From the NCBI GenBank assembly GCA_026414725.1, contig JAOAIL010000001.1:136249-200248 (forward strand): DNA of 64,000 nucleotides, in the 5' to 3' direction. A program made the position numbers and the translations under genes. Below the pieces are notes generated by a model. That model did not search any database, was not told the origin of the DNA, and was given only the letters and a program-made list of their open reading frames with translations. The stretch comes from a bacterium (lineage in GTDB: Bacteria > Ratteibacteria > UBA8468 > B48-G9 > JAFGKM01). Position 1 is the first letter of the stretch. Each line of letters opens with the position of its first letter. Shown here piece by piece: positions 8,612 to 36,928 of the stretch.

Positions 8612-10288
8612 ATGAATAGAAAATGGACAAGTGGGTGGATACTTGTTGCTTGTTTTGTTATTTCTAAGGTTTCTCTTTTATGTGCAGTGGATAATATCTC
8701 CGGACGACTAAAGATGGCATATGAAGCACATAAAAGAGGTATGTATTCACTATCAAACTCTCAGATAGATAAATATCTTAAAGAAAACCCGTCACCTCCT
8801 GATGTTGACTATGCCCACCTTCTGTATGGTGTTAATCTTTTATATCTTGAAGAGGTAGATAAGGCAATAGATAAATTGAATATCATTGTAAAGAAAAGAC
8901 CAGAATCTGAATTTCTAAAAGATGCTATGACATATCTTGTTCTGGCATATCTTAAAAAAACAGATATAGCATCTGCTATTTCATTATATTCCGAATATAA
9001 AAATAGATTCTCTTCTGATGATTCTCTCGAAAATCAGATAGCACAGGTAGTACTCTCAACAGCAGTAACATTGTTTAAAAAGGGTGATATTAAAAAAAGT
9101 AGAGAATTTTTCAGTATTATATCTAAACTAAACATATCTAAATACATGCCTGAAGCACTATATTATGAAGGATTGACCTACTATCAAGAAAATGATTTTG
9201 ACAAGGCAATAGAGCTTTTCAAAAAAGCATCAGAGATGTCACAAACAGAACAAGAACAGAAAGAAATTCTGGCAGATATTTATCTGAAATTGGGGGACTG
9301 TTTTTTAAATAAAAAGGATTATTCTGCAGCAGAACATTATTTCAACAGGGTATGTGATGAATTTCCTGATACTATATACAGTAGTTGGGCATCTTTCCAG
9401 ATGTCTATTATTGAAAAGAGAAAGGGGAACCTTGAAAAAGCTGTATCTCTGCTGGAAGGAATAAGAAGTAGTGAAGAAGATATTCAATTCAAAGTACTTT
9501 CTGAACTGGCGAATGTAAAAATGTTACAGGAAAAATGGGAAGAGTCAGAGACATACCTTAAAGAGATAACGGAGCTAAAACCAGAAGATAAAAACCTATC
9601 TGATATTTATATTAAACTGGGCTTTGTAAACTTCAATATGGGTGAATATGAAGAATCTATAATCTACTTTAAAAAAGTCCTTGAAATATCTTCAGATAGT
9701 AAAGCAAAAGAAGATGCATACTTCTGGCTTGGCTATACATATTATATAAAGAATCTATTTGATGACTCTCAGAAAGTATGGGAAAAACTACGAATAGAAT
9801 TTCCTGATAGCAGGTATATTCACGAGATATTATTTTTCACTGGAAAAAGATACTATGAGTCAGGGAGATATACTGAAGCAGACAGATATTTTTCAGAACT
9901 TATTACAAAATTTCCTGAAAGTTCCTTCTATGAAACCACAATTGAAATGCTTATAGACAGTAAGATACAACAGGGGAAACTAAATGAGGCACTTCAACTG
10001 TGTGATGAATTTCTTAAAAAAGGGAAAAACGAGACAATATCTTTTCTCTATGGTAAAACACTTTTCCTTCTGAAGGACTTCAAAAAAGCAAAATCTATTT
10101 TAGAAAAACTGCAGAGTGTTAAACCCTCAGAAAAGGTAGAAGCAACATATTATCTTGCCAATATATATGAAAAACAAGGGGAGATAGACAAAGCACAGGA
10201 AAAATATCTGGAGATCATCACATTCTTTACTGACTTTCCTGAATGGGTAAGGTATGCAGAAGAAAACCTTAAACGTCTTAAAAAATGA
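8612..10288 (+). CDS. secreted tetratricopeptide-repeat (TPR) protein
   Basis: Hydrophobic N-terminal signal-like segment. Many TPR-like A..Y..G..YY/W.GY repeats. Confidence 0.6.
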   Translation: MNRKWTSGWILVACFVISKVSLLCAVDNISGRLKMAYEAHKRGMYSLSNSQIDKYLKENPSPPDVDYAHLLYGVNLLYLEEVDKAIDKLNIIVKKRPESEFLKDAMTYLVLAYLKKTDIASAISLYSEYKNRFSSDDSLENQIAQVVLSTAVTLFKKGDIKKSREFFSIISKLNISKYMPEALYYEGLTYYQENDFDKAIELFKKASEMSQTEQEQKEILADIYLKLGDCFLNKKDYSAAEHYFNRVCDEFPDTIYSSWASFQMSIIEKRKGNLEKAVSLLEGIRSSEEDIQFKVLSELANVKMLQEKWEESETYLKEITELKPEDKNLSDIYIKLGFVNFNMGEYEESIIYFKKVLEISSDSKAKEDAYFWLGYTYYIKNLFDDSQKVWEKLRIEFPDSRYIHEILFFTGKRYYESGRYTEADRYFSELITKFPESSFYETTIEMLIDSKIQQGKLNEALQLCDEFLKKGKNETISFLYGKTLFLLKDFKKAKSILEKLQSVKPSEKVEATYYLANIYEKQGEIDKAQEKYLEIITFFTDFPEWVRYAEENLKRLKK

Positions 10289-11694
10289 AAATAAGTGCCA
10301 TTTTATTATTCATTTGTGTAATGGTATTCAATGGATTCTCTCAGGAGATAAAACTACCAGAAGAACAGATTACAGGAGAAGATATCCGATTTGAGAAGAC
10401 CAGGTTATTTCCTTTTCCTGTCCCGCAATTTAACATAATAATTCCTGAATTACGCAAACCGGTGAAGAATGATGAGATATATAGGTCTGGTGAAGGTTAT
10501 CTCTCTTTATTCCTCGGAAGTAATACAACTTTTGGCAATACCTTATATTATCATTCATCAGATAATAAAGAAGCAGGATACCACCTCAATATAGGAAATA
10601 TTATTTCAGAAGGAACCAGAGATAACAATCAAAGGAAAAAAGTAGAGATTGATTTTCAGAGAATAGTTGCTTGTAATGAACTTTCATTGAAACTTATATC
10701 AGGAGATATGGAACTCCCTGGACCTGAGGGACATCCTTTTTCTAATATACAAAGGTCTTTTTTTTCATTCCATACCGATTATACATCTATGAAAAGTCAT
10801 TATATTACTCCTTCTATCAAACAGCACCTTTACATAATAGACAACAGAGATATAAATTTTACGACACTAAACTTTTCATTAGACAGGAATTATTCTACAT
10901 GGGAGACAGGAATAGAAAGGTATGATGTATTTAATAATGATTTTTCATCCACATCCTTTTATCAATCCATATATAAAATACAGGATAATCTTTCTCTGGG
11001 AGGTACTCTGAAAATAATAGAAAGATACGGAGTTAGATTTCTCCCTTCATTCAGATACAATCTAAGCGAATATATTACTTTAAAAATTAGTGGTACATAC
11101 CAGATACCCGACCTTTATAAAGATATATTATCCGAAGAATATAAAGAAATAACAAACTATAACTTTGCTCCTGAAGAGGAGTATAGAGTATCCATTGCAT
11201 TTCATAAAAGATTCAAAGATGGTTATATATACCTTGACATCTCCCCTTCTTACAGGGATAATTTCTACGGATGGGCGGATATTGATAAAAATGGCCTTTT
11301 TGAACCATACCCGCAGAATTACTGGCAGACAGCTATTAATCTTGAACTACAATATTCTTTAGCAGATTGTATAAAATGGTTCTTAAAAGGCGAGAAAAGA
11401 TTTATATCAGAAGATTTAGATTATTATCCTGAAGAAACGCTTAATACAGGACTGATATTAAAGTATGGACCTTTTTCATTCAGTCCCTATATCTCTTATA
11501 CAGGGGAAAGGAGATTTTCAGGCAAGAAATCCGGGAGTGTTCCTGTGGTGAATGCAGAAATACTCTTCCAAAAAGGAACTTCTATGGAATGGGGAGTATC
11601 AGTATATAATATTACAGACAGAGAATATTCCATAGTTCCAGGATATCCTGCTGAAGGAATAAATCTAATGTCATTTATAAAAATTTTCTTTTAG
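10285..11694 (+). CDS. putative outer-membrane beta-barrel protein
   Basis: N-terminal signal peptide, alternating hydrophobic/aromatic pattern, C-terminal ...IKIFF ending in Phe (OMP signature). ATGA overlap with the TPR gene. Confidence 0.4.
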   Translation: MKISAILLFICVMVFNGFSQEIKLPEEQITGEDIRFEKTRLFPFPVPQFNIIIPELRKPVKNDEIYRSGEGYLSLFLGSNTTFGNTLYYHSSDNKEAGYHLNIGNIISEGTRDNNQRKKVEIDFQRIVACNELSLKLISGDMELPGPEGHPFSNIQRSFFSFHTDYTSMKSHYITPSIKQHLYIIDNRDINFTTLNFSLDRNYSTWETGIERYDVFNNDFSSTSFYQSIYKIQDNLSLGGTLKIIERYGVRFLPSFRYNLSEYITLKISGTYQIPDLYKDILSEEYKEITNYNFAPEEEYRVSIAFHKRFKDGYIYLDISPSYRDNFYGWADIDKNGLFEPYPQNYWQTAINLELQYSLADCIKWFLKGEKRFISEDLDYYPEETLNTGLILKYGPFSFSPYISYTGERRFSGKKSGSVPVVNAEILFQKGTSMEWGVSVYNITDREYSIVPGYPAEGINLMSFIKIFF

Positions 11695-12751: not shown

Positions 12752-13444
12752 ATGGTATGGAAACAGAACCTTTTATTGAAAGCATTTGTTATAAGTTTAT
12801 TGATACATATCGGTGGAATCTCTATTTTTTCACTTATACTACCCGTATCAATAAGAGAAATAGAACCTGTGGAAGTTTCCCTTCTCCCTACAAGTAACAT
12901 CCCATCTCCAGAAAAGACATACGTGGTGAAAAATATCTCTCCTGAAATTCCAAAGGTCTCACCGAAAACAGAAAAAATAGCAATAGAAAAGATTAGAAAG
13001 GACATTTTAAAATTCTCATCGGAGGAAACCATAGGGGCATCAAGGATTATTACACCTCCAGAGATACTCTCTACAAGATTTGAACTCCCTGATGTCAAGA
13101 TGCCTGACATAATACCATTCGGTAAGACAGACACCTATTCAGAAAATAGGGCTTCCATATCAGATGTTGAAATAGAAGGTCCTGCCGGAAACAGGTCGCT
13201 CATCTACAAAGAACCAGTTGAATATCCAGAATGGGCAATTGAGAAAGCACTGGAGGGTAATATAAGAATTAAATTCTGGGTTGCCCCTGATGGTAAAATT
13301 ATTCTTACAAATCTCATTACATCTTCCGGCTATCCTGAACTTGACCTCTATGCAGAACAGAAATTTAGAAAATGGTTATTTGAACCAATACAGACAGATA
13401 AACAAGCATGGGGTTTAATAACATTTAGATTTTACTTAAAATGA
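12752..13444 (+). CDS. TonB/TolA-like energy transducer
   Basis: N-terminal TM anchor, Pro/Glu/Lys-rich spacer, C-terminal domain ending ...G.I.IKFWVAPDGKI... like the TonB C-terminus. Confidence 0.55.
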   Translation: MVWKQNLLLKAFVISLLIHIGGISIFSLILPVSIREIEPVEVSLLPTSNIPSPEKTYVVKNISPEIPKVSPKTEKIAIEKIRKDILKFSSEETIGASRIITPPEILSTRFELPDVKMPDIIPFGKTDTYSENRASISDVEIEGPAGNRSLIYKEPVEYPEWAIEKALEGNIRIKFWVAPDGKIILTNLITSSGYPELDLYAEQKFRKWLFEPIQTDKQAWGLITFRFYLK

Positions 13445-13692
13445 TTAAGATAGAGATTAATCTGGCGGTATCTATTTATCTGACTGTCAGTATTTTCATC
13501 TTGTTATTGTGGATTTTATTTGAATATAGGAAAGATAACAAAGAAAAAGCAAGAAGGTATGATACCCTTTGGCAGTGTCCCATATGTTTTTATACATATA
13601 TTGACAGCAGGTCTGAGAATATCTCCAGATGTCCAAAGTGTAGCACTCTTCACAGCAGGGAAGAAAAAGTGTACAATATAAAAGGAGATTAA
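13441..13692 (+). CDS. small membrane-anchored zinc-ribbon protein (hypothetical)
   Basis: One TM helix followed by CPIC....CPKC zinc-ribbon spacing. ATGA overlap with the TonB-like gene. Confidence 0.4.
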   Translation: MIKIEINLAVSIYLTVSIFILLLWILFEYRKDNKEKARRYDTLWQCPICFYTYIDSRSENISRCPKCSTLHSREEKVYNIKGD

Positions 13693-13714
13693 CCTTTCTC
13701 TGAAAGGAGATGTT

Positions 13715-13921
13715 ATGATAACAGAAATTGGAATAGTTGCGGGTGAAGTATGGCAGTATCTTGAAAAATATAATGAGGCATCTCTTTCTCAGATAGCGAG
13801 GGCAATAAAAAGAGAAAGAGACCTTGTAATGTTAAGTTTAGGGTGGTTAGGAAGGGAAGGACATATTCTGATTACAAAAGAAGGCGATGAATATATAATA
13901 ACCTTCCGTAAAAAAGAATAG
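13715..13921 (+). CDS. small winged-helix-like protein (hypothetical)
   Basis: 68 aa, RBS AAGGAG. Helix-turn-helix-like LSQIARAI segment. Confidence 0.35.
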   Translation: MITEIGIVAGEVWQYLEKYNEASLSQIARAIKRERDLVMLSLGWLGREGHILITKEGDEYIITFRKKE

Positions 13922-13982
13922 TATTTCAAAATTCCTAAACTTTATAAATTTTTAGAGATTTGGAGTTATCTTTTTTCTTAAA

Positions 13983-14056
13983 TGGGGGATCGTCTAATGG
14001 TAGGACACGAGACTCTGGATCTCGGCGTCTAGGTTCAAATCCTAGTCCCCCAGCCA
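13983..14056 (+). tRNA. tRNA-Gln (anticodon CUG), CCA encoded
   Basis: Cloverleaf folded by hand. U1:A72 acceptor (TGGGGGA/TCCCCCA). Anticodon loop CU-CUG-GA. T-arm CTAGG-TTCAAAT-CCTAG. 3' GCCA. Confidence 0.8.
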
Positions 14057-14261
14057 ATTTTATAAACAAAGAGTTTAAGAGAGTTTTCTCTGCCTATTTT
14101 GTAAAAGGAGGATGATATCTTTTTCTATTCCTAACTCATCATATCTTTTTAACAATTGGTCTGGCGTTGAATATGTCGCTTTTCCTTTTCTTAAGAATGT
14201 TTGATATTTTCTTTCATGTACATGGATATCTATAAACATCTCTTTCCTTATCTATTTTTAA

Positions 14262-15026
14262 CTACCACTTTATTATATCAAGTGCTGAATCAATCAAAAA
14301 CTCCTTTTCTATAAAGTATGGATTTTCTAACTTTTTCCCCTCAGAATCCATTCTTCTTACAACCAACTTTACAGGAAGTTTTATCTTATATGGCTTAAGT
14401 TCCGGGATTAACTTCACTGCCTTTTTAGCCCCTTCCTTTAACATCTCTCGCGTCTCTTCTGGAGGTATTAAAACAGCTGATTCTCTACTTATACCCTTCT
14501 TTACTGCTACACAGGGTAGATTTTCTCCCAATGTTGCCTTCGCTTCCTTACATGCTGCTTCGTCTCCTGAAACGAGTATAACAGGAACATTATAGTGTCC
14601 CGCAATTACAGCGCACTGATAGATTTCACCTCTTTCTATCCCATCATAAAAGTACTTTGCCTCTGTAATATGATTCTGTGTATGGTGTAATAAACCATCT
14701 TGAGTCCCATTCATTGAGTGATATCCCAGCAGAATAAAACCATCAAATGACTCATCCAGACCATATAAAGGACATGGACGAGGAACACCTGTAATATAGC
14801 GTACACCCGGGACCATCAGTTCTGGTATAAAGTTATTCCCTCCATTATGACCATCAAGGACATATATCTCTTTAACACCTGCATCTTTAAGTCCTTCTAC
14901 TACAGCAGATATATCTCCCATTAGAAGTTTCATCGCTTCTTTAAATTCTGGTGCTCCTTTCATTGTCTGTTCCCATTTAAAAATCCCTGTAGCACCCTCT
15001 AAATCTGTACATATATATATTTTCAT
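14262..15026 (-). CDS. D-aminopeptidase DppA-like (peptidase M55)
   Basis: MKIYICTDLEGATG ... LLGYH ... VPVILVSGDEAACKEA parallels B. subtilis DppA segment by segment. Confidence 0.7.
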   Translation of the reverse strand: MKIYICTDLEGATGIFKWEQTMKGAPEFKEAMKLLMGDISAVVEGLKDAGVKEIYVLDGHNGGNNFIPELMVPGVRYITGVPRPCPLYGLDESFDGFILLGYHSMNGTQDGLLHHTQNHITEAKYFYDGIERGEIYQCAVIAGHYNVPVILVSGDEAACKEAKATLGENLPCVAVKKGISRESAVLIPPEETREMLKEGAKKAVKLIPELKPYKIKLPVKLVVRRMDSEGKKLENPYFIEKEFLIDSALDIIKW

Positions 15027-21602: not shown

Positions 21603-21604
21603 AT

Positions 21605-21796
21605 GGAGAGGTGGCTGAGTGGACGAAAGCGGCCGACTCGAAATCGGCTGTGCCTTTATGGCACCGCAGGCTGAAATACAACGTATTTCTGGATTTCAGG
21701 GGAGCGAAGTAAGAAATTGCGATGAGTAAGAGCAATTTCAGCGGGTGGCCGACCCCGAGCGTATCGGGAGCGAGGGGCGCCGAATCCTGCCCTCTG
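21605..21796 (+). pseudogene. tRNA-Ser(CGA)-like copy disrupted by a roughly 110-nt structured insertion in the T-loop
   Basis: 21605-21670 (66 nt: acceptor 5' strand through T-stem 5' strand, including the long variable arm) is identical to 21859-21924. An insertion 21671-21780 with three hairpins follows. Then CGAATCCTGCCCTCTGG resumes the T-loop/3' acceptor sequence but with CC->GG, which breaks acceptor pairing. Confidence 0.5.
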
Positions 21797-21825
21797 GTTG
21801 CGTTAGCAACCAGTCCTGCTTTTTA
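21794..21825 (+). terminator. hairpin CTGGTTGC-GTTA-GCAACCAG followed by TCCTGC-TTTTT (terminator-like)
   Basis: Perfect 8-bp stem read from the sequence. The U-tract is displaced 6 nt from the stem, so it is not canonical. Confidence 0.3.
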
Positions 21826-21858
21826 TTTAGTAGAATATATTATGAGCACCTTAATTCT

Positions 21859-21944
21859 GGAGAGGTGGCTGAGTGGACGAAAGCGGCCGACTCGAAATCG
21901 GCTGTGCCTTTATGGCACCGCAGGTTCGAATCCTGCCCTCTCCG
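21859..21944 (+). tRNA. tRNA-Ser (anticodon CGA), class II with long variable arm, no encoded CCA
   Basis: Acceptor GGAGAGG/CCTCTCC + G73. Anticodon stem GCCGA/TCGGC, loop CU-CGA-AA. Variable arm TGTGCCTTTATGGCACCGC. T-arm GCAGG-TTCGAAT-CCTGC. Confidence 0.8.
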
Positions 21945-21980
21945 TTTAAAATATGTTATAATTTAGTAAAGGAGGTTATT

Positions 21981-22964
21981 ATGGCCAGGCAGGAATACCT
22001 TTACGTCAAAAATTTTATTAAATACAACTTTCGCCATTTTAATGCTGCTGTTGTGGTATCTGCATCTGAAGCATATGTCCAACACCTGAAAGAAGGTGGT
22101 AAGATGATGATAACTATTGCAGGCGCAATGAGCACAGCAGAGTTAGGACTGACACTTGCAGAGATGATAAGGGAAGAAAAAGTTCATGCTATTACCTGCA
22201 CAGGAGCAAACCTTGAAGAAGATATATATAACCTCGTTGCACATAACTATTATGTTATGGTTCCTAACTGGAGAGACCTTTCTCCAGATGAAGAGGAAAA
22301 ACTGCTCCAGCGACAACTAAACAGAGTAACAGATACCTGTATTCCTGAAGAAGAAGCGATGAGACGATTGGAAAAGGCAGTAATAAAATACTGGAAGAAA
22401 GCAGAGGAAGAAGGGAAAAGGTACTTCCCGTATGAGTATATGTATCAGGTTATTAGAAGCGGCGACCTTGAAAAATATTACCAGATTGACCCGAAGGACT
22501 CCTGGGTAGTTGCTGCCTGTGAAAAAAACATACCTATATTTGTTCCGGGGTGGGAGGACTCTACATTAGGCAACATGTTTGTGGCTCAGGTAAAGAAAAA
22601 AGAGATAAAAGAGATATCTATTGTGAAATCAGGGCTTGAAACAATGGACTTTCTTATTGACTGGTATTTAGCAAACTCAAAAGATACAAGTATTGGATTT
22701 TTTCAGATAGGAGGAGGTATTGCAGGGGACTTCCCTATATGTGTTGTCCCTCTCATCAGGCAGGATATGAAGAAACAATGTAAACTCTGGGGATATTTCT
22801 GCCAGATATCTGACAGTACCACATCTTATGGTTCTTACAGTGGTGCTATCCCGAACGAAAAGATTACATGGGAAAAGTTAGGGGTAGATACACCTAAATT
22901 CATCATTGAAAGTGATGCTACAATAGTAGCCCCTCTTATGTTTGCTTACATACTCGCTGAGTGA
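21981..22964 (+). CDS. deoxyhypusine synthase-like (DHS fold) protein
   Basis: Segments ITCTGANLEEDIY, NIPIFVPGWEDSTLGNM, QIGGGIAGDFPI and TWEKLGVDTPKFIIESDATIVAPLMFAYILA parallel human DHS blocks ([72 protein letters not shown]). GGAGG RBS. The ORF-track start at 21873 lies inside the tRNA. Confidence 0.6.
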   Translation: MARQEYLYVKNFIKYNFRHFNAAVVVSASEAYVQHLKEGGKMMITIAGAMSTAELGLTLAEMIREEKVHAITCTGANLEEDIYNLVAHNYYVMVPNWRDLSPDEEEKLLQRQLNRVTDTCIPEEEAMRRLEKAVIKYWKKAEEEGKRYFPYEYMYQVIRSGDLEKYYQIDPKDSWVVAACEKNIPIFVPGWEDSTLGNMFVAQVKKKEIKEISIVKSGLETMDFLIDWYLANSKDTSIGFFQIGGGIAGDFPICVVPLIRQDMKKQCKLWGYFCQISDSTTSYGSYSGAIPNEKITWEKLGVDTPKFIIESDATIVAPLMFAYILAE

Positions 22965-23142
22965 TATTCCTTCCATAAAGGTATGATTATTATAAGAAGA
23001 TGCTTTCTTTTCTCTATTAAGAAAAATTCTATTCTGGAAACAGATGAGGAACAACGAATTCCTTGAATTTTAATGAGTGTTCAATATATAATATAGGGCA
23101 GAGAAATAATGCTGAATAATTAAAATTTTAATTTTATTATTT

Positions 23143-23216
23143 GCCCCTGTAGCTCAGAAGGACAGAGCAGCGGTTTCCTAAACCGCGTGTCGCCCGTTCG
23201 AGTCGGGCCAGGGGTA
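23143..23216 (+). tRNA. tRNA-Arg (anticodon CCU), no encoded CCA
   Basis: Acceptor GCCCCTG/CAGGGGT (G1:U72) + A73. Anticodon stem GCGGT/ACCGC, loop UU-CCU-AA. T-arm GCCCG-TTCGAGT-CGGGC. Confidence 0.75.
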
Positions 23217-23379
23217 CTAAAATATTAACAGATGAGTATATTCACAGATTGGTAGATTTTGTATAAACAGATAAAAGGGCGACGAAAAGGGTTTCAGGGG
23301 AAAGGTAACGTTCCCCTGAGTTTGTTATGGGGGGAGAACTATATCAGGAAGGGGGGTGAGAACCCCCCTCCTGAGATTA

Positions 23380-23419
23380 TCGCCCGTTCGAGTCGGGCCA
23401 GGGGTACTAAATATTGATA
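23380..23419 (+). repeat. direct repeat of the tRNA-Arg 3' end (T-arm + acceptor 3' strand + about 12 nt of trailer), 164 bp downstream of the gene
   Basis: TCGCCCGTTCGAGTCGGGCCAGGGGTACTAAA at 23380-23411 is identical to 23189-23220. The flanks continue ATATT..; the two copies differ by one indel. Confidence 0.65.
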
Positions 23420-23463
23420 TGTATAATCTTCAAATTTCCTAATTTTCTAAATTTAAGGGATCT

Positions 23464-29865: not shown

Positions 29866-30219
29866 TCAAAATTGAATAAAAATCGCAGTGGTTATAATAT
29901 TTTTACTTCTCTTTAAAAAATTAAGGGTAAGCCCTTGAATATCTTCTTTTTCTTTCAACAGAGGGATTGGTTTCCCTTTCTTCCATATAATCTCAATGTC
30001 CTTAAAGTAAAATTCTTTCTGTTTCTCATCGGGTAGCGCCTTCCAGATGGCTTCTTTAAAAGAGAATGAGACAGCCATGTAGAAATGACTATTTATTTCA
30101 GGGAGGTGCTCCAGTTCTCTTCTGGTATATATCCTTCTTATAAATCTCTCTCCATATCTTTTTACTACCATTTCAAACCTTTCTATATCTACAATATCAA
30201 TACCTGTTGTTATCTCCAC
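29866..30219 (-). CDS. acpS: holo-[acyl-carrier-protein] synthase (4'-phosphopantetheinyl transferase)
   Basis: (V)EITTGIDIVDIERF....R.GERF..R..T..E is the AcpS N-terminal signature. Likely GTG start at 30219 preceded by AAGGAG (7-nt spacer). The longer ORF to 30390 has no AcpS-like N-extension and overlaps the promoter-like repeat. Confidence 0.65.
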   Translation of the reverse strand: MEITTGIDIVDIERFEMVVKRYGERFIRRIYTRRELEHLPEINSHFYMAVSFSFKEAIWKALPDEKQKEFYFKDIEIIWKKGKPIPLLKEKEDIQGLTLNFLKRSKNIITTAIFIQF

Positions 30220-30225
30220 TTTTCT

Positions 30226-30284
30226 TCTCCTTGAAAAACTTTTCTTTTCATTGTAAATTTTATGGAATATTTTGGCAACTTTAA
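30226..30284 (+). repeat. copy A of a 59-bp promoter-like repeat (TTGAAA-17 nt-TAAATT core)
   Basis: 53/59 identical to 31491-31549. -35 TTGAAA at 30231-30236, -10 TAAATT at 30254-30259. Lies about 205 bp upstream of the GH130 ATG. Its complement provides the acpS RBS. Confidence 0.55.
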
Positions 30285-30383
30285 ACCACTTTTTAAGAAA
30301 AAGATGACACATACACATAAAAGAATAAATTGCTGGAAACAAAAGATAGGTATTATGTAGAATCCAGAAAATGCTATCTGGAT

Positions 30384-30412
30384 TTGACAAATCTTATACT
30401 TGTGAGATAATA
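30384..30412 (+). promoter_or_regulatory. sigma70-like promoter TTGACA-17 nt-ATAATA proximal to the GH130 gene
   Basis: Consensus -35 TTGACA at 30384-30389, ATAATA at 30407-30412. About 80 nt upstream of ATG 30491. Confidence 0.35.
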
Positions 30413-31393: not shown

Positions 31394-31490
31394 CGAGAGA
31401 AGAAAAAACAAATCTTACATTTGGGGAAAAACAGAAATAGTTATAATACTTTTTCAAACCTTTCTCAATATTAATCATCTTTCTTTACTT

Positions 31491-31549
31491 TCTCCTTGAA
31501 AAACTTTTCTTTTCATTGTAAATTGTATAGGATATTTTGGCAATTTTAA
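31491..31549 (+). repeat. copy B of the 59-bp promoter-like repeat, 22 nt upstream of the SGNH-hydrolase ATG
   Basis: -35 TTGAAA 31496-31501, -10 TAAATT 31519-31524. Followed by AAGGAAGGAG RBS and ATG 31571. Confidence 0.55.
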
Positions 31550-31570: not shown

Positions 31571-32575
31571 ATGATTTATAAAGGAGTGTATCTGCATAAT
31601 GTGGCGGAACTGCTTAAAACAGAAGATGGGATTATGTTAACAAGGATACCTGATAGTTTAAGAATGTCTTTAAGTACATGGATACAGACAAGAGCGATAA
31701 GGCCGGCAGGTGTTGAACTACGGTTTAATTTGAAAAGTAATTCTGCGAGAATTATCCTGAAATCACAGGAAGAGGGTATCTTTGTTAGTGAGGTATACCA
31801 GGGAAACTTTCTTGTGAAGTATTGCTATATAAGTAACAATGATTCTGAAATTGTGATATCCCTTCCCCAAAATATAGAGCAACTTAAAGAGATATCAAAA
31901 AAGAAGAAATTGCCTTTTGATGCAGGACTTACAAGGATAATTCTCCCCTGGGGACCAACCTGTGTAATTAAAGATATTGAAGGGGAATTTGAGCCACCCA
32001 TGAAAGAACAACTTCCAGCAATAAGATACCTTGCCTATGGCTCTTCCATTACACAGGGGGAAAGTGCTATAAATCCTTCAGGTACATATGCAATGAAAAC
32101 AGCATATCTTCTTGGATTGGACCTGATAAACTTAGGATTTGGTAGTGGTGCCCGCTGTGAGAAAGAGATGGCTGACTATATTGCAGGTAGAAATGACTGG
32201 GCCTTTGCCACACTGGAGATGGGGATAAATATGTTCTATGATGTCATGAGTGTTTCTGAATTCAGAAAAAGGGTGGAGTATTTTGTCCCCACGATAGTAA
32301 AAGCACACCCTGATAAGTATGTGTTCTGTATTGATATGTTTACCTTTAATTTAGGACGTAAAGGAGAGAAAAAAAGACAGAAGGAATACAGAGATATAGT
32401 TAAGGAAGTTGCCACGGCAATGAATTCGGAGAAAGTAATCCACATTGATGGAAGAAAGCTTTTAAAGTCATGGTCTGGACTGTGTAGGGACCTCGTCCAT
32501 CCTTCACCGGCAGGGATGGAAGAGATAGCGAGGAATCTGTCAGGGATAATAAAGAGATATATAAAGTATAAATGA
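31571..32575 (+). CDS. SGNH/GDSL-family hydrolase (carbohydrate esterase-like) with N-terminal extra domain
   Basis: LAYGSSITQGESA (block I Gly-Ser-Ser nucleophile), G.N.F (block III), and a D..HP-type block V near the C-terminus. Confidence 0.6.
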   Translation: MIYKGVYLHNVAELLKTEDGIMLTRIPDSLRMSLSTWIQTRAIRPAGVELRFNLKSNSARIILKSQEEGIFVSEVYQGNFLVKYCYISNNDSEIVISLPQNIEQLKEISKKKKLPFDAGLTRIILPWGPTCVIKDIEGEFEPPMKEQLPAIRYLAYGSSITQGESAINPSGTYAMKTAYLLGLDLINLGFGSGARCEKEMADYIAGRNDWAFATLEMGINMFYDVMSVSEFRKRVEYFVPTIVKAHPDKYVFCIDMFTFNLGRKGEKKRQKEYRDIVKEVATAMNSEKVIHIDGRKLLKSWSGLCRDLVHPSPAGMEEIARNLSGIIKRYIKYK

Positions 32576-32877: not shown

Positions 32878-34644
32878 ATGGAGGATAAAGGAAAGATTGT
32901 AAAGGTGAGTGGACCACTTGTTCAGGCAGAAGGGATGAAGAGTGCAAGGATGTATGATGTTGTAAGAGTGGGGGAAGAAAAACTTATAGGAGAGATAATA
33001 CGGATAGAAGGTAATACTGTTTCTATTCAAGTATATGAAGAAACAGAAGGATTAAAGGTGGGTGACCCTGTATTTGGTACGGGAGAACCATTAATGGTAG
33101 AACTCGGACCCGGTCTTTTATCAAATATATTTGATGGAATTCAAAGGCCCCTATCAAGATTAGAAACTACAGGGGATTTCATCCTTAAGGGTGTCCAGAT
33201 ACCTGCATTAGACAGGGAGAAAAAATGGATGTTTAAACCGATAGTAAAGAAAGGAGATTTTGTTTCAGAAGGAGATATTATAGGGGAGGTTCAAGAAACA
33301 GGGATTATTGTCCATAAAATCCTTGTACCATATGGTTTTAATGGAGAAATTATTGATATAAAAGAAGGAGATTTTACTGTAGAAGAAGAGATAGGAAGAA
33401 TAAGAACAGAAGAGGGGAAAAATGTTCCCCTTTATCTTATGCAGAGATGGCCTGTTCGTGCCAAAAGGGCTGTGAGAGAAAAAAGACCTCCAGTTGAACC
33501 ACTCGTTACAGGACAGAGAGTAATAGATACTCTTTTCCCTGTAGCAAAAGGTGGGACCGCATGTATTCCTGGTCCATTTGGCTCTGGCAAAACAGTGGTA
33601 TTGCATCAAATAGCCAAGTGGGCAGATGCACAGGTGGTTGTGTATATCGGCTGTGGAGAAAGAGGAAATGAGATGGCAGATGTCCTTATAGAGTTCCCTG
33701 AATTGCAAGACCCTCAAAGTGGAAGACCTCTTATGGAGAGGACAGTTCTTATTGCGAATACATCTAATATGCCTGTTGCTGCAAGAGAAGCATCTATTTA
33801 TACAGGTATAACAATTGCAGAGTATTTCAGGGATATGGGTTATTCTGTTGCACTTATGGCTGACTCTACAAGCAGGTGGGCAGAGGCACTGAGAGAGATA
33901 TCAGGACGACTTGAGGAAATGCCTGGCGAGGAAGGATATCCTGCCTATTTAGGAACATCTGTTGCCTCTTTTTATGAAAGGGCAGGAAGATGTCTATGTC
34001 TCGGCAACAGAGAAGGTACTCTTTCCGTAATAGGTGCTGTCAGTCCACCCGGAGGAGACCTTACAGACCCTGTGGTACAGATGACACTGAAAGTAGTAAA
34101 GGTATTCTGGGGACTGGATGACCGGCTTGCTTACCAGAGGCACTTCCCTGCAATAAACTGGCTTACAAGTTATTCCCTGTATATAGAAAATCTTAAGAAA
34201 TATTCTGAAAATAATATAGCATCGGATTTTACTTCTATCAGACAGACAGCACTTTCTATACTTGAAAAGGAAGCAGAACTTTTAGAGATAGTCCGACTTG
34301 TAGGTATGGAGACACTTTCTGCACAGGACCGTCTTATCCTTGAAACCGCCAGAAGCATCAGGGAGGACTTTCTACACCAGAGTGCATTTGATGAAAGGGA
34401 TGCATATACAACACTAAAGAAACAATACAGGATGTTAAAAACTATCATACTCTTCTACCAGTATGCATCACAGGCAATTGAAAAAGGAATATCCATAGAA
34501 AAAATTCATAATCTTCATATCAGAGAAAATATCGTAAAGATGAGATATATAGCCCACTCAAAAGTAGAAGAAGAGTTTGGTAAATTAGAAACAAATATAA
34601 AAGAAGCATTCCCTACTCTCGGTATTGAGAGTAAAGTGCTATAA
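32878..34644 (+). CDS. atpA: V-type ATP synthase catalytic subunit A
   Basis: 588 aa. N-terminal beta-barrel segment, Walker [17 protein letters not shown], and typical A-subunit length. Confidence 0.9.
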
Positions 34645-36928
34645 CTGACTGACCTGCGGAGATACATCCATCATTTGTTGGAAGGTTATGGTGGCAGAAG
34701 ACAGAAAAATTGTTTTCTTGCAATTCCTTCCATACAATATCAAGTAAAAGTTTGTTCTGAAATACACCTCCTGAAAGAACCACTCTATATATCCCTCTTT
34801 CTTCTTTTATTCGTTTGCATATCCTGGTAATTATTGCTGATATAGTTCTGTGGAACTTATATGAGATTTTTTCCGTAGATATACCACTTTTTATATCATC
34901 TACAATGCTTTTTATTAAAGGCAACAGGTCTATTATTAAACTACTCTCTTCTCTTATTCCATATTTATAGGGTTTCCCCTCTGTCTTTTTTGCTATCATT
35001 TCAAGTTCTATTGCTGGCTGTGCTTCATAGGTAATGTTTTCACTTATACCAAGTATTGAAGAAACCCCATCAAAAAGACGTCCCATACTTGAGACAGGTA
35101 CACAGTTTATATCTTTCTTAAACATATCCAGTATGAATTCTGTCTTACTTCTATATCTTTCAATAAATGGGATTTTAAGATTGAAAATTTCATTACCAAA
35201 GGTTTTGTACAGCAAAGACAGCCCTATCCTCCAGACCTCCTTAATTGCCTTCTCTCCACCTGGAAGTGTTATATAGTCAAGGTAAGCATACCGCTCATAA
35301 GTTCTATAGTCAGCAATTAAAAACTCTGCCCCTCTTATATCCCCTTTTTCTCCATAACCAGTTCCGTCCAGCGCAACACCTATAACCTTTTCATTCTTAA
35401 GATTATTATCAAGCATACAAGAAGCAATATGTGCGTGGTGATGCTGAATACCTATGGTCTTCAACCCATTTCTTTTAGCCATATCCAGTGCAAACTTTGT
35501 AGGTAGATAGTCAGGATGAAGGTCATGGGCAACTATTTCCGGAGAAAAACCAAAAATTCTTACAAAGTGTTCAAATGTTTCATAATAAAAATTCAGTGTC
35601 TCTGCATCTTCCTGATTACCTGTATGCTGACTTAAAATAATACTATTATCTCTACCAAAAGCAAATGTATTCTTCTCTTCTGCTCCTGCAGCAAAGACCT
35701 CTTTTTTGAAAGAAATAGCTGTTTTTATCATATCAGGTGTATATCCCCGTGCCTTTCTTATCATATATATGTTTTTATCAGGGGCAACCCTCACCACAGA
35801 ATCATCACATCCGGTCTTTATAGGACGGTTGTTTGTAAGGATATAGTCAGAAATATAAGTAAGTTTTTCCATTTCTTTTTTGTTATCCTTGAAGATAATC
35901 GGGCTATCCGCAATATTGGCACTGGTAGCAACAACTACATCAGGGCAGTTAAAGAAAAATAGGAGGTGGTGGACAGGTGTATAAGGAAGAAAAAATCCTA
36001 AATATCTGTTAGAAGGGGCTATTTCTTCTGGAAGAGTACAATTCTCTTTTTTCTTTAAAAGAACTATGGGACTTTGCCACGAAACTAATAACTTTTTTTC
36101 TACACTACTTATAAAGCAGTATTGTTTTGCTGTTTTTATATCCTTTGCCATAAGAGCAAAAGGCTTATCTCCCCTGTTTTTTATTTCTCTTAATCTATTT
36201 ACTATCTTGCTATTTTTTGCATCACAGATAAGATGATATCCCCCTGTCCCTTTTACCGCAACAATGTATCCTTTGTTTATAAGTTCTGCGGACCTTTTTA
36301 TTGCTTCTATACCTTTTGCCAGAATCTCATCTTTAATTAAAAAAACATCAGGACCACAGACAAAACAGCAATCCGGCTGTGCATGAAACCTTCTATCAGC
36401 AGGGTTATTATATTCTTTTAGACATTCAGGACACATCTTAAATATCTTCATAGTTGTATTTTCTCTGTCATAGGGAAGTTTTTCTGTAATGGTAAACCGT
36501 GGTCCACAATTTGTGCAGTTGATAAAAGGAAACAGATATCTCCTGTCTTCAGGATTAAATAACTCTTTCAGACATTCATTACATATAGCAATATCAGGAG
36601 AAAGTTCAATTTTTATCTTTTCTGATGTATATCTACTTCCAATTATTCTGAATGTCTTTTCACTATTGATAGGATTTGTGTATATGACAGAGATTTTGTT
36701 AATATGTGCGCGAACCGGTGGGTTTCTCTTTATCTTTTCAATAAATTTTTCTATATTCTTTATAAAACCTTCTACTTCTATATATAACCCATCTGCAGTA
36801 TTACATACAAAACCAGTCAACCTGTTCTCAACAGCATACTTGAAGACAGAAGGTCTGAATCCAACCCCCTGAACCCTGCCTTCAATAAAAACCTTTACCC
36901 TTCTTTTCAGGAGTGCCATTTCTCTCAC
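34613..36928 (-). CDS. hypF: [NiFe]-hydrogenase maturation carbamoyltransferase HypF
   Basis: 771 aa. N-terminal acylphosphatase ([11 protein letters not shown]), two CxxC-x18-CxxC zinc fingers, YrdC-like and Kae1/YgjD-like C-terminal domains. Confidence 0.9.

Follow-up and report, generated by a model that had tools for sequence, protein, structure and literature searches.

Downstream of the tRNA-Arg(CCU) gene in the window (the whole stretch of 64 kb that was analysed), a segment enclosed by two copies of the tRNA 3' end belongs to an apparently undescribed family of hairpin-rich non-coding elements in uncultivated Ratteibacteria- and Omnitrophota-like bacteria. With a probability of about one half, positions 23222-23379 together with the flanking 32-nt repeat are a copy of a small, non-coding, non-autonomous element family specialised for tRNA 3' ends. 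Large integrative elements classically land at tRNA genes; a unit of only about 100 nt, free of genes, that does the same at many tRNAs with a matched arm would be the smallest tRNA-targeting element known.

The tRNA-Arg(CCU) locus

The locus is composed of the following features.

23063-23092, + strand: promoter-like TTGAAT-18-TATAAT, some 50 nt before the tRNA-Arg gene (consensus scan, 10/12 matches)
23143-23217, + strand: intact tRNA-Arg(CCU) gene, without an encoded CCA (ARAGORN)
23190-23221, + strand: left copy of the 32-nt direct repeat (exact repeat)
23222-23276, + strand: AT-rich variable spacer from the repeat to the arm, not conserved in other family members (8-46% identity, alignment of four tRNA-Arg loci)
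23277-23283, + strand: arm GGGCGAC, the reverse complement of GTCGCCC in the tRNA at 23189-23195 (read from the sequence)
23284-23379, + strand: conserved core, GAAAAGGG ... CCTGAGATTA (covariance model R1, nhmmer)
23295-23318, + strand: hairpin 1, CAGGGGAA/TTCCCCTG, followed by the T-rich AGTTTGTTAT (RNAalifold, folds)
23329-23344, + strand: G-rich segment GGGGGGAGAACTATAT, predicted to be unpaired and nearly invariant in the family (alignment of copies)
23345-23373, + strand: hairpin 2, CAGGA-A-GGGGGG, loop TGAGAA, CCCCCC-TCCTG (folds, alignment)
23380-23411, + strand: right copy of the 32-nt direct repeat, a tRNA-Arg 3' fragment that is no gene by itself (exact repeat)

The Rfam tRNA model matches the tRNA-Arg gene with 60.5 bits at 23143-23216, and the gene is 95% identical to the tRNA-Arg(CCU) genes of three related loci, L108, L122, and L124. 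The promoter-like site upstream is a pattern match only, such sites being no commoner in the region than in shuffled sequences. A reading of the DNA made earlier from its letters alone, referred to here as the sequence-only reading, had described an exact 32-nt repeat over the T arm, the acceptor 3' strand, and the trailer, and the repeat search confirmed it at both positions. The repeated sequence, TCGCCCGTTCGAGTCGGGCCAGGGGTACTAAA, takes in the end of the variable region and the T arm, together with the 3' acceptor strand, the discriminator base, and a 5-nt trailer (CTAAA); by our own arithmetic, the chance expectation of an exact repeat of this length in 64 kb is about 1e-10. The two copies are separated by 158 nt, and the second copy begins 162 nt after the end of tRNA-Arg, not 164 bp as first given. 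ARAGORN calls no second tRNA at the right copy. The arm matches the tRNA stretch that spans the start point of the right-hand repeat.

The two strong hairpins that had been noticed between the copies are both real, being recovered by the folds at the positions listed. The segment had also been described as lacking an ORF, and it holds no credible one: the only ORFs of at least 20 amino acids that cross the element are a TTG frame of 52 amino acids and a GTG frame of 28. Also considered was a conserved small ORF in the core (MGGELYQEGG...); it was rejected, being broken on reading by stops or by changes of frame in the window, L002, and L098.

Copies at seven tRNA species

A scan with a 21-mer from the window core, which overlaps the G-rich segment, matched 13 metagenome loci. 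Together with nhmmer and a covariance model, it led to 25 full copies of the element in 19 loci from related metagenome-assembled genomes (MAGs) and metagenomes, namely, the window, L002, L098/L100, L106-L118, L122, and L124. The covariance model R1 matches the window at 23267-23384 with 126.7 bits (E = 1e-34), its only real match there, and the nhmmer match of the window core has an E value of 1e-30. All copies with both flanks visible lie on the tRNA strand and immediately 3' of a tRNA, either a gene or a fragment, with seven tRNA species represented: Arg-CCU, Phe, Val, Leu-UAG, Leu-UAA, Leu-CAA, and Met. The copies with visible flanks precede a repeat of 17 to 48 nt of the 3' part of their own tRNA. 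The trailer contributes 0 to 21 nt to this repeat (5 nt in the window), so that exact repeats reach up to 21 nt into non-tRNA sequence.

The integrated form consists of an intact tRNA, its trailer, a variable spacer, an antisense arm, the core, and a tRNA copy that runs from a junction J to the 3' end and includes trailer. The junction lies either just before the T stem, as in the window, or at A57 in the T loop. The whole element measures about 100 to 160 bp, of which the conserved core makes up about 95 nt.

Two explanations had been offered by the sequence-only reading for the segment of about 160 bp, with relatives named as the place to look for it: an end left behind by imprecise excision of a mobile element, or a miniature non-coding element for which the tRNA serves as attachment site. 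The recurrence of the core in these copies supports the second explanation and extends it to a conserved family at seven tRNA species. The element is not a one-off scar, with 25 copies in 19 loci, and the excision explanation is not supported: all 25 copies are small, have the same core, and are in no case located in or beside an integrase-bearing element.

A related idea, that the locus represents the two ends of an integrase-bearing prophage or island at tRNA-Arg whose interior was deleted, is largely refuted and very unlikely. It would account for the attL/attR-like geometry, with an intact tRNA and a 3' fragment in direct repeat, and classical islands do occur in relatives at the same tRNAs (L121 at tRNA-Arg; L113-L115 and L117 at tRNA-Leu; L119 at tRNA-Ser). 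However, one core of about 95 nt is found at seven tRNA species in copies that are all small and free of flanking element genes, and random deletions would not repeatedly spare the same 100 nt. In L113-L117, the classical islands have neither such a core nor such an arm at their ends, and the phage, plasmid, and viral collections searched gave no match.

An assembly artefact, either a mis-join or a collapsed repeat, is scarcely credible. The source is a MAG, the array in L124 holds an assembly gap, and two Logan contigs, L098 and L100, break off within a copy, but the same architecture is found in independent NCBI, JGI, ENA, and Logan assemblies, at different tRNAs and with locus-specific arms. 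The units themselves form exact repeats at tRNA genes that are longer than common assembler k-mers, which may help explain contig breaks and spurious partial tRNA calls in MAGs of this kind.

Core and hairpins

The core has the following order: GAAAAGGGG, hairpin 1 with its T-rich tract, GGGGGGAGAACTATAT, hairpin 2, and AGATwr. Hairpin 1 has 9 pairs, 4 of which show changes on both sides across 16 copies (RNAalifold), and its region, 23293-23320, scores as an intrinsic-terminator-like site in the terminator scan. The 10 pairs of hairpin 2 are essentially invariant in the family alignment; L002 has TTAAGGGGGAG/CTCCCCCTTAA at this place. The element region of the window folds better than all of 200 shuffled sequences, with z = -4.1 as RNA and z = -4.5 as DNA. 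In the centroid folds of L108-Arg, L109, and L110, a helix between the arm and the tRNA fragment (P1) encloses both hairpins. An extension of hairpin 2 by TAT/ATA pairing was not robust, with one covarying case (L108) and two contrary ones.

Rfam 15 matches 23222-23379 only with the tRNA and with chance-level models (E of 2 or more), and in four further loci with at least 6 copies nothing was found at E <=0.05. Resemblances to hammerhead and box C/D motifs (CUGAGAU, AGAUGAG) did not fit the consensus on reading. The core has no match in phages, plasmids, and viral contigs within a limited search space. A gapped version of the hairpin pattern (AGGGGAAA...TTCCCCT...GGGGG) was non-specific, as it retrieved 15 unrelated G/C-run repeats from viral contigs, with no tRNA context.

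An antisense arm matched to each tRNA

Just 5' of the core, each copy has an arm of 6 to 13 nt, the reverse complement of the stretch around the repeat start in its own tRNA. At tRNA-Arg in L108, L122, and L124, the arm is extended to (C)GGGCGACAC. Cognate duplexes between arm and tRNA have a mean energy of -22.0 kcal/mol, versus -13.5 kcal/mol (SD 4.5) for non-cognate ones, and the cognate tRNA is the best or tied best partner of the arm in 9/9 rows. The arm of the window is short (7 nt) and pairs only modestly better with its own tRNA (-16.4 kcal/mol) than with the best non-cognate one (-13.2 kcal/mol). The arm-tRNA duplex is always stronger than the duplex between arm and fragment. In a chimeric copy in L114, the arm is of type A and the junction of type B, and therefore arm-fragment pairing is unnecessary for persistence.

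The arm, at 23277-23283 in the window, is absent from the sequence-only reading and is the most informative feature of the element.

In the reading to which we give a probability of about one half, the element would enter the tRNA gene at J, and the gene would be kept intact by the supply or duplication of its 3' part. Such an insertion would formally resemble the attL/attR sites of tRNA-targeting integrative elements, with the enzyme encoded elsewhere. The arm would be the specificity device: in the single-stranded state it would pair with either the sense copy or, across J, the target, and the resulting duplex would mimic or read the tRNA gene. Folded attC sites, the attP hairpin of the CTX phage, and the guide segments of IS200/IS605 ends are known parallels. 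Unequal crossing-over between the repeats would then expand arrays, delete copies, and homogenise them.

A bolder reading, which we consider possible but less likely than not, is a programmable element, with a fixed structured core of about 95 nt between an antisense arm across the insertion point and a sense copy up to the tRNA 3' end, both rebuilt from each new tRNA gene. If this reading is true, it implies either an insertion mechanism that reads its target by base pairing and copies it in both orientations or a tRNA-specific RNA with two binding places on its cognate tRNA. In the literature searched and to our knowledge, neither has been described for bacteria. An arm that acts as a guide would make this a compact system with an insertion site set by base pairing, of interest for site-specific recombination and possibly for targeting tools.

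The origin of the two target-derived parts might also be sought in reverse transcription. Here, reverse transcription of the core RNA would take place, SINE-like, where the tRNA gene is nicked, and template switching or snap-back would produce the sense duplication and the arm. Variable-length target duplications are typical of target-primed reverse transcription by non-LTR elements, and those of the family range from 17 to 48 nt; the arm abuts the core with the polarity of a tRNA cDNA, and a copying step is needed for both target-derived parts. We nevertheless judge this origin to be quite improbable. The window encodes no reverse transcriptase, the element has no poly-A or other 3' signature, and the arm reaches 3 to 5 nt past the junction. 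Simple snap-back leaves no such extension, and none of several schemes of template switching and snap-back worked out on paper produced it. We know of no such SINE-like elements in bacteria.

A fixed staggered cut is unlikely because of this range of repeat lengths, and target duplication with a fixed stagger was rejected as the sole mechanism, the repeat length varying at both ends. A homing guide of the CAST type was also rejected, since the tRNA copy continues into the trailer and is followed directly by host DNA, not by a transposon end.

Coding content and partner enzymes

All 57 ORFs of at least 100 amino acids in the window are housekeeping genes or are without a Pfam match, and none has a Phage_integrase, rve, transposase, or reverse transcriptase domain. 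TnpA (Y1 transposase), TnpB, intI, and Cas domains are likewise absent from the 64-kb window. In L108, L110, and L115, the element is neighboured by housekeeping genes or by island genes unrelated to it, and in 0/25 copies is the core located inside a larger element. We identified no partner enzyme, saw no excised or circular form, and caught no insertion event directly. The literature searched for miniature, integrase-less, or hairpin-based elements that target tRNAs describes only classical islands and annotation issues with tRNA fragments.

Occupancy, arrays, and conservation

One host locus, recognised by the flank TCCCTTGATACTCAATAATTTTACC, has the occupancy B, A-B, A, A-B, or B-A'-B in different contigs. 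L124 has a tandem array of at least 3 identical units of 182 nt. L122 carries the element at tRNA-Arg and has an empty tRNA-Leu(UAA), the upstream flank of which is orthologous to the occupied site in L108; this empty site could equally be the result of a loss by recombination between the repeats. The L108 cores at Leu-UAA and at Arg differ by 3 nt, and such near-identical cores at different tRNAs of one genome could reflect gene conversion rather than transposition.

At tRNA-Arg(CCU), the element is found with the same junction in four related genomes, including that of the window (the others being L108, L122, and L124). Among the latter three, arm and core are 89 to 93% identical and the flanks are unalignable; spacers and flanks are 8 to 46% identical, and the adjoining coding DNA is 75.7% identical. 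The common junction fits the vertical inheritance of a useful module as well as it fits repeated targeting. According to the sequence-only reading, the same arrangement conserved unchanged across distant relatives would point to an ancient fixed duplication. The arrangement at tRNA-Arg(CCU) does recur in three relatives, but not unchanged: spacers, trailers, and repeat lengths differ, one genome has a tandem array, and other tRNAs are occupied.

These observations bear on a further explanation, which we regard as rather doubtful, that the unit is a functional RNA or DNA module of certain tRNA genes, vertically inherited and kept uniform by gene conversion, with the repeat being part of its function or a by-product of recombination. 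It could be, for example, a trailer whose hairpin 1 stops transcription of the tRNA, or an RNA bound to its own tRNA by the arm and by the single-stranded copy of the 3' acceptor. A functional trailer RNA would add to tRNA biology a new layer, in a phylum that is known through metagenomes only. In agreement with a module, the tRNA-Arg(CCU) junction and arm are the same in four genomes, the core is almost as conserved as the tRNAs next to unalignable flanks, all copies are strictly co-directional with the tRNA, hairpin 1 and its T-rich tract resemble an intrinsic terminator, and the arm covaries with tRNA identity. On the other hand, only some tRNAs are occupied (1/4 in the window, and in L122 Arg but not Leu-UAA), and unit number and order differ at strain level at one locus, with identical tandem units. 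The exact repeats that extend into the non-tRNA trailer look like a recent duplication rather than a motif under selection. With termination at hairpin 1, both hairpin 2 and the tRNA fragment would be outside the RNA, and a module, too, requires some process by which at least seven tRNA genes were once seeded.

Comparison with known systems

Among the closest known systems are tRNA-targeting integrative elements (tyrosine-integrase prophages, islands, and ICEs) and their integrase-less derivatives (cis-mobilisable elements, CIMEs), which likewise have an intact tRNA on one side and its 3' part in direct repeat on the other, an identity block from within or beside the T arm to the tRNA end or past it, and tandem arrays at one tRNA whose gene stays functional. 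Unlike these, the element is gene-free and only 100 to 160 bp long, with no cognate full-length element found, uses one core for seven or more tRNAs with a repeat of 17 to 48 nt, and has an antisense arm matched to the tRNA; we know of no such arm in classical attP sites. As at integrase-mediated attL/attR sites, the 3'-part repeat accompanies an intact tRNA, whereas an integrase is found neither in nor beside the element.

The unit also differs from MITEs, the derivatives of DDE transposons. Its ends, as read, have no terminal inverted repeats, the duplication is variable and not of fixed length, and the element, in all copies with visible flanks, is confined to the tRNA strand directly 3' of a tRNA or fragment, and not dispersed in both orientations.

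Similarity to attC sites and to the attP(+) hairpin of the CTX phage, which uses the host XerCD, lies in a short, non-coding, recombinase-less unit with sense and antisense target copies on one strand that can fold into a duplex imitating the recombination site, in cassette-like arrays beside a fixed site, and in a comparable size (about 60 to 140 nt). In contrast to attC, the element has no R and L boxes and no GTTRRRY core, the T loop GTTCGAG being a misfit to GTTRRRY, and its stem is tRNA-specific and not a consensus; the likeness to both is drawn from anatomy only.

IS200/IS605 PATEs resemble the element in having two hairpins of G and C runs on the same strand (their subterminal position depends on how the element is delimited), a short internal segment complementary to the DNA at the insertion point, no terminal inverted repeats, and a strict orientation, with the hairpin strand on the presumed lagging-strand template. 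The guide of IS200/IS605 elements has 4 to 5 nt, whereas the arm has 6 to 13 nt and is about 10 nt from the hairpin foot. A long target duplication is seen here, whereas these elements make none; the contrast would vanish with the tRNA 3' copy assigned to the left end.

CRISPR arrays and casposons have in common with the family a repeat-insert-repeat order, with a partly palindromic repeat of about 30 nt (the T arm region) duplicated with each unit, and some casposons target tRNA 3' ends. The inserts found here, however, are one conserved element and not unique spacers, they have no terminal inverted repeats, and the repeat is variable in length. Lastly, tRNA group I introns occur in the same tRNA species (Leu(UAA), Arg(CCU), and fMet) and have a guide-like segment near the 5' end that is complementary to the flanking tRNA. 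They are located in the anticodon loop and are at least 200 nt long, whereas the element of about 100 to 160 nt follows a complete tRNA, relates to the T arm, and has no Rfam intron match.

The tRNA-Ser(CGA) locus

The tRNA-Ser locus upstream had been described as showing a similar partial duplication. It has the following features.

21604-21857, + strand: lineage-specific 254-bp block upstream of tRNA-Ser(CGA) (repeat search, terminator scan)
21604-21677, + strand: copy of the tRNA-Ser 5' part, 74 nt (repeat search)
21781-21795, + strand: 15-nt copy of the tRNA-Ser T loop, T stem, and acceptor (repeat search)
21794-21813, + strand: terminator-like hairpin in the block (terminator scan)
21858-21945: intact tRNA-Ser(CGA) (repeat search)
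21981-22964: DHS-family gene, the sole gene between the tRNA-Ser and tRNA-Arg loci

The duplication is present, but the similarity does not hold: it is the 5' part that is repeated, the 74-nt copy starting 254 nt before the intact gene, and the GC-rich structured insert in the block is not homologous to the Arg element, with which it has only TTTCAGGGGA in common and whose models do not match it. The closest relatives (L002, L102, and L120) are without the block and have a single tRNA-Ser. The observation that only a DHS-like gene lies between the two tRNA loci is correct; in the synteny comparison through this gene, relatives with 83 to 91% identity mostly have other neighbours.

The tRNA-Arg(CCU) locus

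ARAGORN predicts four tRNA genes in the window, including tRNA-Ser(CGA) and tRNA-Arg(CCU), and a repeat search of the window shows that the T arm, 3' acceptor strand, discriminator base and five trailer bases of tRNA-Arg recur downstream as an exact 32-nt direct repeat. The folding of the insert region between the copies beats all shuffles. The features of the locus are as follows.

21858-21945, tRNA-Ser(CGA)
21981-22964, deoxyhypusine-synthase-family gene (DHS)
23143-23217, tRNA-Arg(CCU)
23190-23221, first copy of the 32-nt repeat
23222-23379, 158-nt inter-repeat segment, the element
23295-23318, hairpin 1, within the insert
23345-23373, hairpin 2, within the insert
23380-23411, second copy of the 32-nt repeat

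ARAGORN, the repeat search and the folds agree to within 2 bases with the tRNA-Arg, repeat and hairpins described in the sequence-only reading, which had also rightly placed only a DHS-like gene between the tRNA-Ser and tRNA-Arg loci. Its statement that the insert carries no ORF holds for larger frames, but two short ones (52 and 28 aa, the only ones of at least 20 aa) run across the element. The tRNA-Arg gene (23143-23216) is absent from the whole-window Rfam scan at the gathering threshold, which lists three tRNAs, but scores 60.5 bits with the same Rfam model on the sub-region, the miss being a filter effect of the tool and not biology.

A family of elements following tRNA genes

The Candidatus Ratteibacteria contig L002 carries a DHS 84% identical to that of the window, followed by a different tRNA, tRNA-Phe(GAA), whose 3' third is repeated 183 nt downstream of that tRNA, and its insert has both hairpins as well as sequence blocks in common with the window insert. 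A third copy was found at the end of the related contigs L098 and L100, and scanning a metagenome collection with a 21-mer common to the window and L098 (GAGAACTATATCAGGAAGGGG, window 23336-23356) gave 13 loci. Seeking the insert in relatives, as had been proposed from the sequence, finally yielded 25 full copies in 19 loci and three truncated copies, using nhmmer and a covariance model built on 16 copies, in a sample that the 21-mer query skews to close relatives of the window's core; the window holds exactly one copy. An assembly error is barely conceivable, as independent assemblies show the element, and a decayed end of a classical island, or the leftover end of an excised element considered in the sequence-only reading, is very improbable, the copies being too many and too uniform.

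In all copies with visible flanks, a tRNA gene or a fragment of one stands immediately 5' on the same strand (Arg-CCU, Phe-GAA, Val-CAC, Leu-UAG, Leu-UAA, Leu-CAA and Met-CAU), and the 3' part of that tRNA recurs as a direct repeat after the copy. The exception is the copy of L098/L100, whose left side is truncated at the contig end and whose right flank has no recognisable tRNA sequence.

L098 6461-6578 and L100 3830-3947, minus strand, one element copy upstream of dnaJ, contig ends inside

This copy continues into TTGAGGGAGAACAACAG. At the matching position, the Candidatus Omnitrophica contig L096 has a solitary 16S rRNA gene (13200-14730, minus strand), with a terminator-like hairpin and dnaJ after it, in that order; neither a 23S gene nor a tRNA comes after the 16S gene, indicating an unlinked rRNA operon. 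Its trailer TCAGGGAGTAAAA vaguely resembles TTGAGGGAGAACAACAG, and judging from this sequence the L098/L100 element may also stand after a 16S gene.

Rfam has no family for the element, the phage, plasmid and viral collections gave no match, and the literature searched contained no description of such elements, although its coverage is incomplete and an earlier description is possible.

Anatomy of the unit

Each unit is composed of the tRNA, the trailer belonging to the repeat (0-21 nt), a variable spacer (from about 0 nt at tRNA-Arg of the related contig L108 to about 55 nt in the window), an arm, the core and the tRNA fragment. The core of about 95 nt consists of GAAAAGGGG, hairpin 1 with a T-rich tail, the almost invariant GGGGGGAGAACTATAT, hairpin 2 and AGATwr. 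The fragment starts at one of two positions, which define type A (just 5' of the T stem, seen in the window, at every tRNA-Arg, at Val and Phe, and in some Leu copies) and type B (A57 of the T loop, seen at Met and Leu-CAA and in some Leu-UAG copies). It always reaches the discriminator base and often passes it, with repeats of 17-18 nt in L111, 32 nt in the window, 34 nt in L106, 38 nt in L002 and 48 nt in L122. A YTTTGAR/TTGAT motif recurs a few bases past tRNA genes, both at element left edges and in host trailers (L106, L108, L112, L117 and window 23412-23420, where the right flank of the element reads CTAAATATTGAT), and may act as a trailer signal or belong to the target.

The arm lies directly 5' of the core and matches, in every copy, the reverse complement of the cognate tRNA around the fragment start.

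Arms of the element by host tRNA
Arg, window: GGGCGAC (GTCGCCC in the tRNA)
Arg, L108, L122 and L124: GGGCGACAC
Met: GGGGGGATTTGA
Leu-CAA: GAGGGAGTTGA
Leu-UAG, type A: GAACCC...ACGGGATA
Val: TTGAACC..GGCCTC
Phe: ACGCCA

The mean arm-tRNA duplex energy is -22.0 kcal/mol for cognate pairs against -13.5 (sd 4.5) for non-cognate pairs, and no non-cognate pair beats the cognate one in any of the nine rows, the ties being among Leu tRNAs with a common T arm. The complementarity crosses the junction by 3-5 nt, so that pairing of the arm is stronger with the intact tRNA than with the fragment; the window arm is the shortest and weakest example. Arm and fragment start are predicted to form a helix, P1, able to close a three-way structure around both hairpins; of six units folded, three have P1 in their centroid structure. 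In hairpin 1, 4 of 9 pairs have compensatory changes, mostly between types A and B, and the hairpin with its T-rich tail passes a simple intrinsic-terminator scan. The sequence of hairpin 2 is invariant save in L002, which has a different perfect stem at the same position.

Variation between related genomes

A single host locus after tRNA-Leu(UAG), known by its flank TCCCTTGATACTCAATAATTTTACC, carries different sets of units on different contigs.

Units at the TCCCTTGATACTCAATAATTTTACC locus
L111: B alone
L107, L113, L115: A then B
L117: A alone
L114: B-A'-B, the middle unit recombinant

The tRNA-Arg(CCU) locus in the relatives of L108 was retrieved via a neighbouring gene; L122 and L124 share the order epimerase, tRNA-Arg, element, GYD and lipoate ligase, and a lipoate-ligase gene directly follows the element in the window. 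The sequence-only reading had named unchanged conservation of the duplicated arrangement as a sign of an ancient fixed duplication. All four genomes (window, L108, L122 and L124) do have the element here with the same junction and arm, but the spacers are unrelated, the repeat measures 32, about 36 or 48 nt, and unit number differs, L124 having at least three identical 182-nt units in an array with an assembly gap. The core is B-like in the window and A-like in the other three. Arm and core are 89-93% identical among L108, L122 and L124, against random-level identity of spacers and right flanks, so that the core is either strongly constrained or spreading between genomes. The tRNA-Leu(UAA) of L122 is unoccupied, and its upstream flank is orthologous to that of the occupied L108 site (75.7% over 622 nt).

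A vertically inherited functional module, such as a terminator, trailer RNA or tRNA-binding RNA, kept uniform through gene conversion, would suit the junction common to the tRNA-Arg copies, the high conservation of the core and the strictly kept orientation. Patchy occupancy, arrays differing between strains and exact repeats extending into the non-tRNA trailer argue against such a module, which we consider unlikely, though a serious alternative.

Past the tRNA-Met fragment of L110 (2480-2600, minus strand), the 75-nt spacer and arm of the unit recur, followed by a degenerate, truncated core (GAAAATGGTTTGGGGGAAAGAAATCC...), by its sequence a decaying second unit. In L002, a 52-nt direct repeat (1318-1369 and 1836-1887, 88% identical) brackets the entire tRNA-Phe-element unit, and further G-run/C-run hairpins without a match to the family model are packed after that unit (1666-2040).

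Possible mechanism

The element is conserved, carries no gene, has a set orientation and is associated with the 3' ends of many tRNA genes; its sense repeat and its antisense arm both derive from the target, and arrays and occupancy vary. We infer that it is a non-autonomous mobile element. It would enter the tRNA gene at the junction and preserve the gene, in a geometry formally like that of tRNA-targeting attL/attR integration; insertion would depend on an enzyme encoded elsewhere, and recombination between repeats could then expand, delete and homogenise units. The arm points to recognition through base pairing, or to a single strand folded into an imitation of the tRNA gene; integron attC sites, the attP hairpin of CTX phage and the guide segments of IS200/IS605 operate like this. 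As one core serves at least six arm specificities, arm and repeat must be made from the target or selected afterwards. A reverse-transcription route would account for a templated arm, but with neither enzyme nor sequence signature we regard it as improbable. For the mobile element, we derived no simple scheme yielding the extension of the arm across the junction, and our confidence in the mechanism is therefore moderate.

Classical islands at the same tRNAs

The related contig L121 (9325-9385) keeps only the 5' half of tRNA-Arg(CCU), broken off at the anticodon loop and fused to an island with RadC and an HsdR-like type I restriction gene, showing that a classical island uses that tRNA too. 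In L113, L114, L115 and L117 (e.g., L115 12600-12660), a tRNA-Leu(UAG) 3' fragment begins in the anticodon loop (CTTAGGATCC...), with an island encoding an SNF2/PLD helicase-nuclease and an AAA/HTH protein on its 5' side and mini-elements in tandem after it.

The tRNA-Ser locus

The tRNA-Ser locus had been read as a similar partial duplication. A duplication is present, but here the 5' part is copied, and the insert is unrelated to the Arg element, matching none of the element models.

21604-21857, lineage-specific block of 254 bp before tRNA-Ser(CGA)

The block begins with a 74-nt copy of the 5' two-thirds of the tRNA, followed by a GC-rich structured insert, and includes a 15-nt T-loop/acceptor piece; a terminator-like hairpin and an AT-rich stretch close it, and the intact tRNA-Ser gene comes next. 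By its sequence, the 3' half of the insert seems to be another tRNA-Ser, degenerate and starting at the anticodon arm (GGCCGACCCCGA..ATCGGG, CGAATCCTGCCCTCT). In relatives with 84-90% DHS identity this site holds just one tRNA-Ser, the block being absent from L002, L102 and L120, and in L119 just the last ~9 bases of tRNA-Ser are left, with an unrelated upstream ORF that looks like a DNA methyltransferase C-terminus. The absence in relatives and the replacement in L119 indicate an integration or rearrangement hotspot.

Genomic context of the window

The window has a G+C content of about 36%, and its 57 ORFs of at least 100 aa are all ordinary chromosomal genes or lack a Pfam match, with no integrase, transposase, reverse transcriptase or Cas protein among them by Pfam. 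The genes include LytB, Pta/AckA, ExbBD/TonB, V-type ATPase, DnaX, RecR, an Mbh/Mrp-type hydrogenase and Hyp maturation genes, and the nearest DHS relatives are labelled Candidatus Ratteibacteria, Candidatus Omnitrophica or just "bacterium." A 469-aa ORF in the TPR/ExbBD/TonB cluster (10285-11694) has no Pfam match even at E = 1e-3. A 60-nt direct repeat (30225-30284 and 31490-31549, 93% identical) has one copy inside an ACPS-family ORF on the minus strand (29866-30390) and its second copy in the gap ahead of a GDSL-lipase gene at 31571. The cumulative GC skew peaks near 34 kb, where gene orientation flips from mostly plus to mostly minus (about 33000-35000), a convergence that points either to a region like a replication terminus or to a simple switch of strand.
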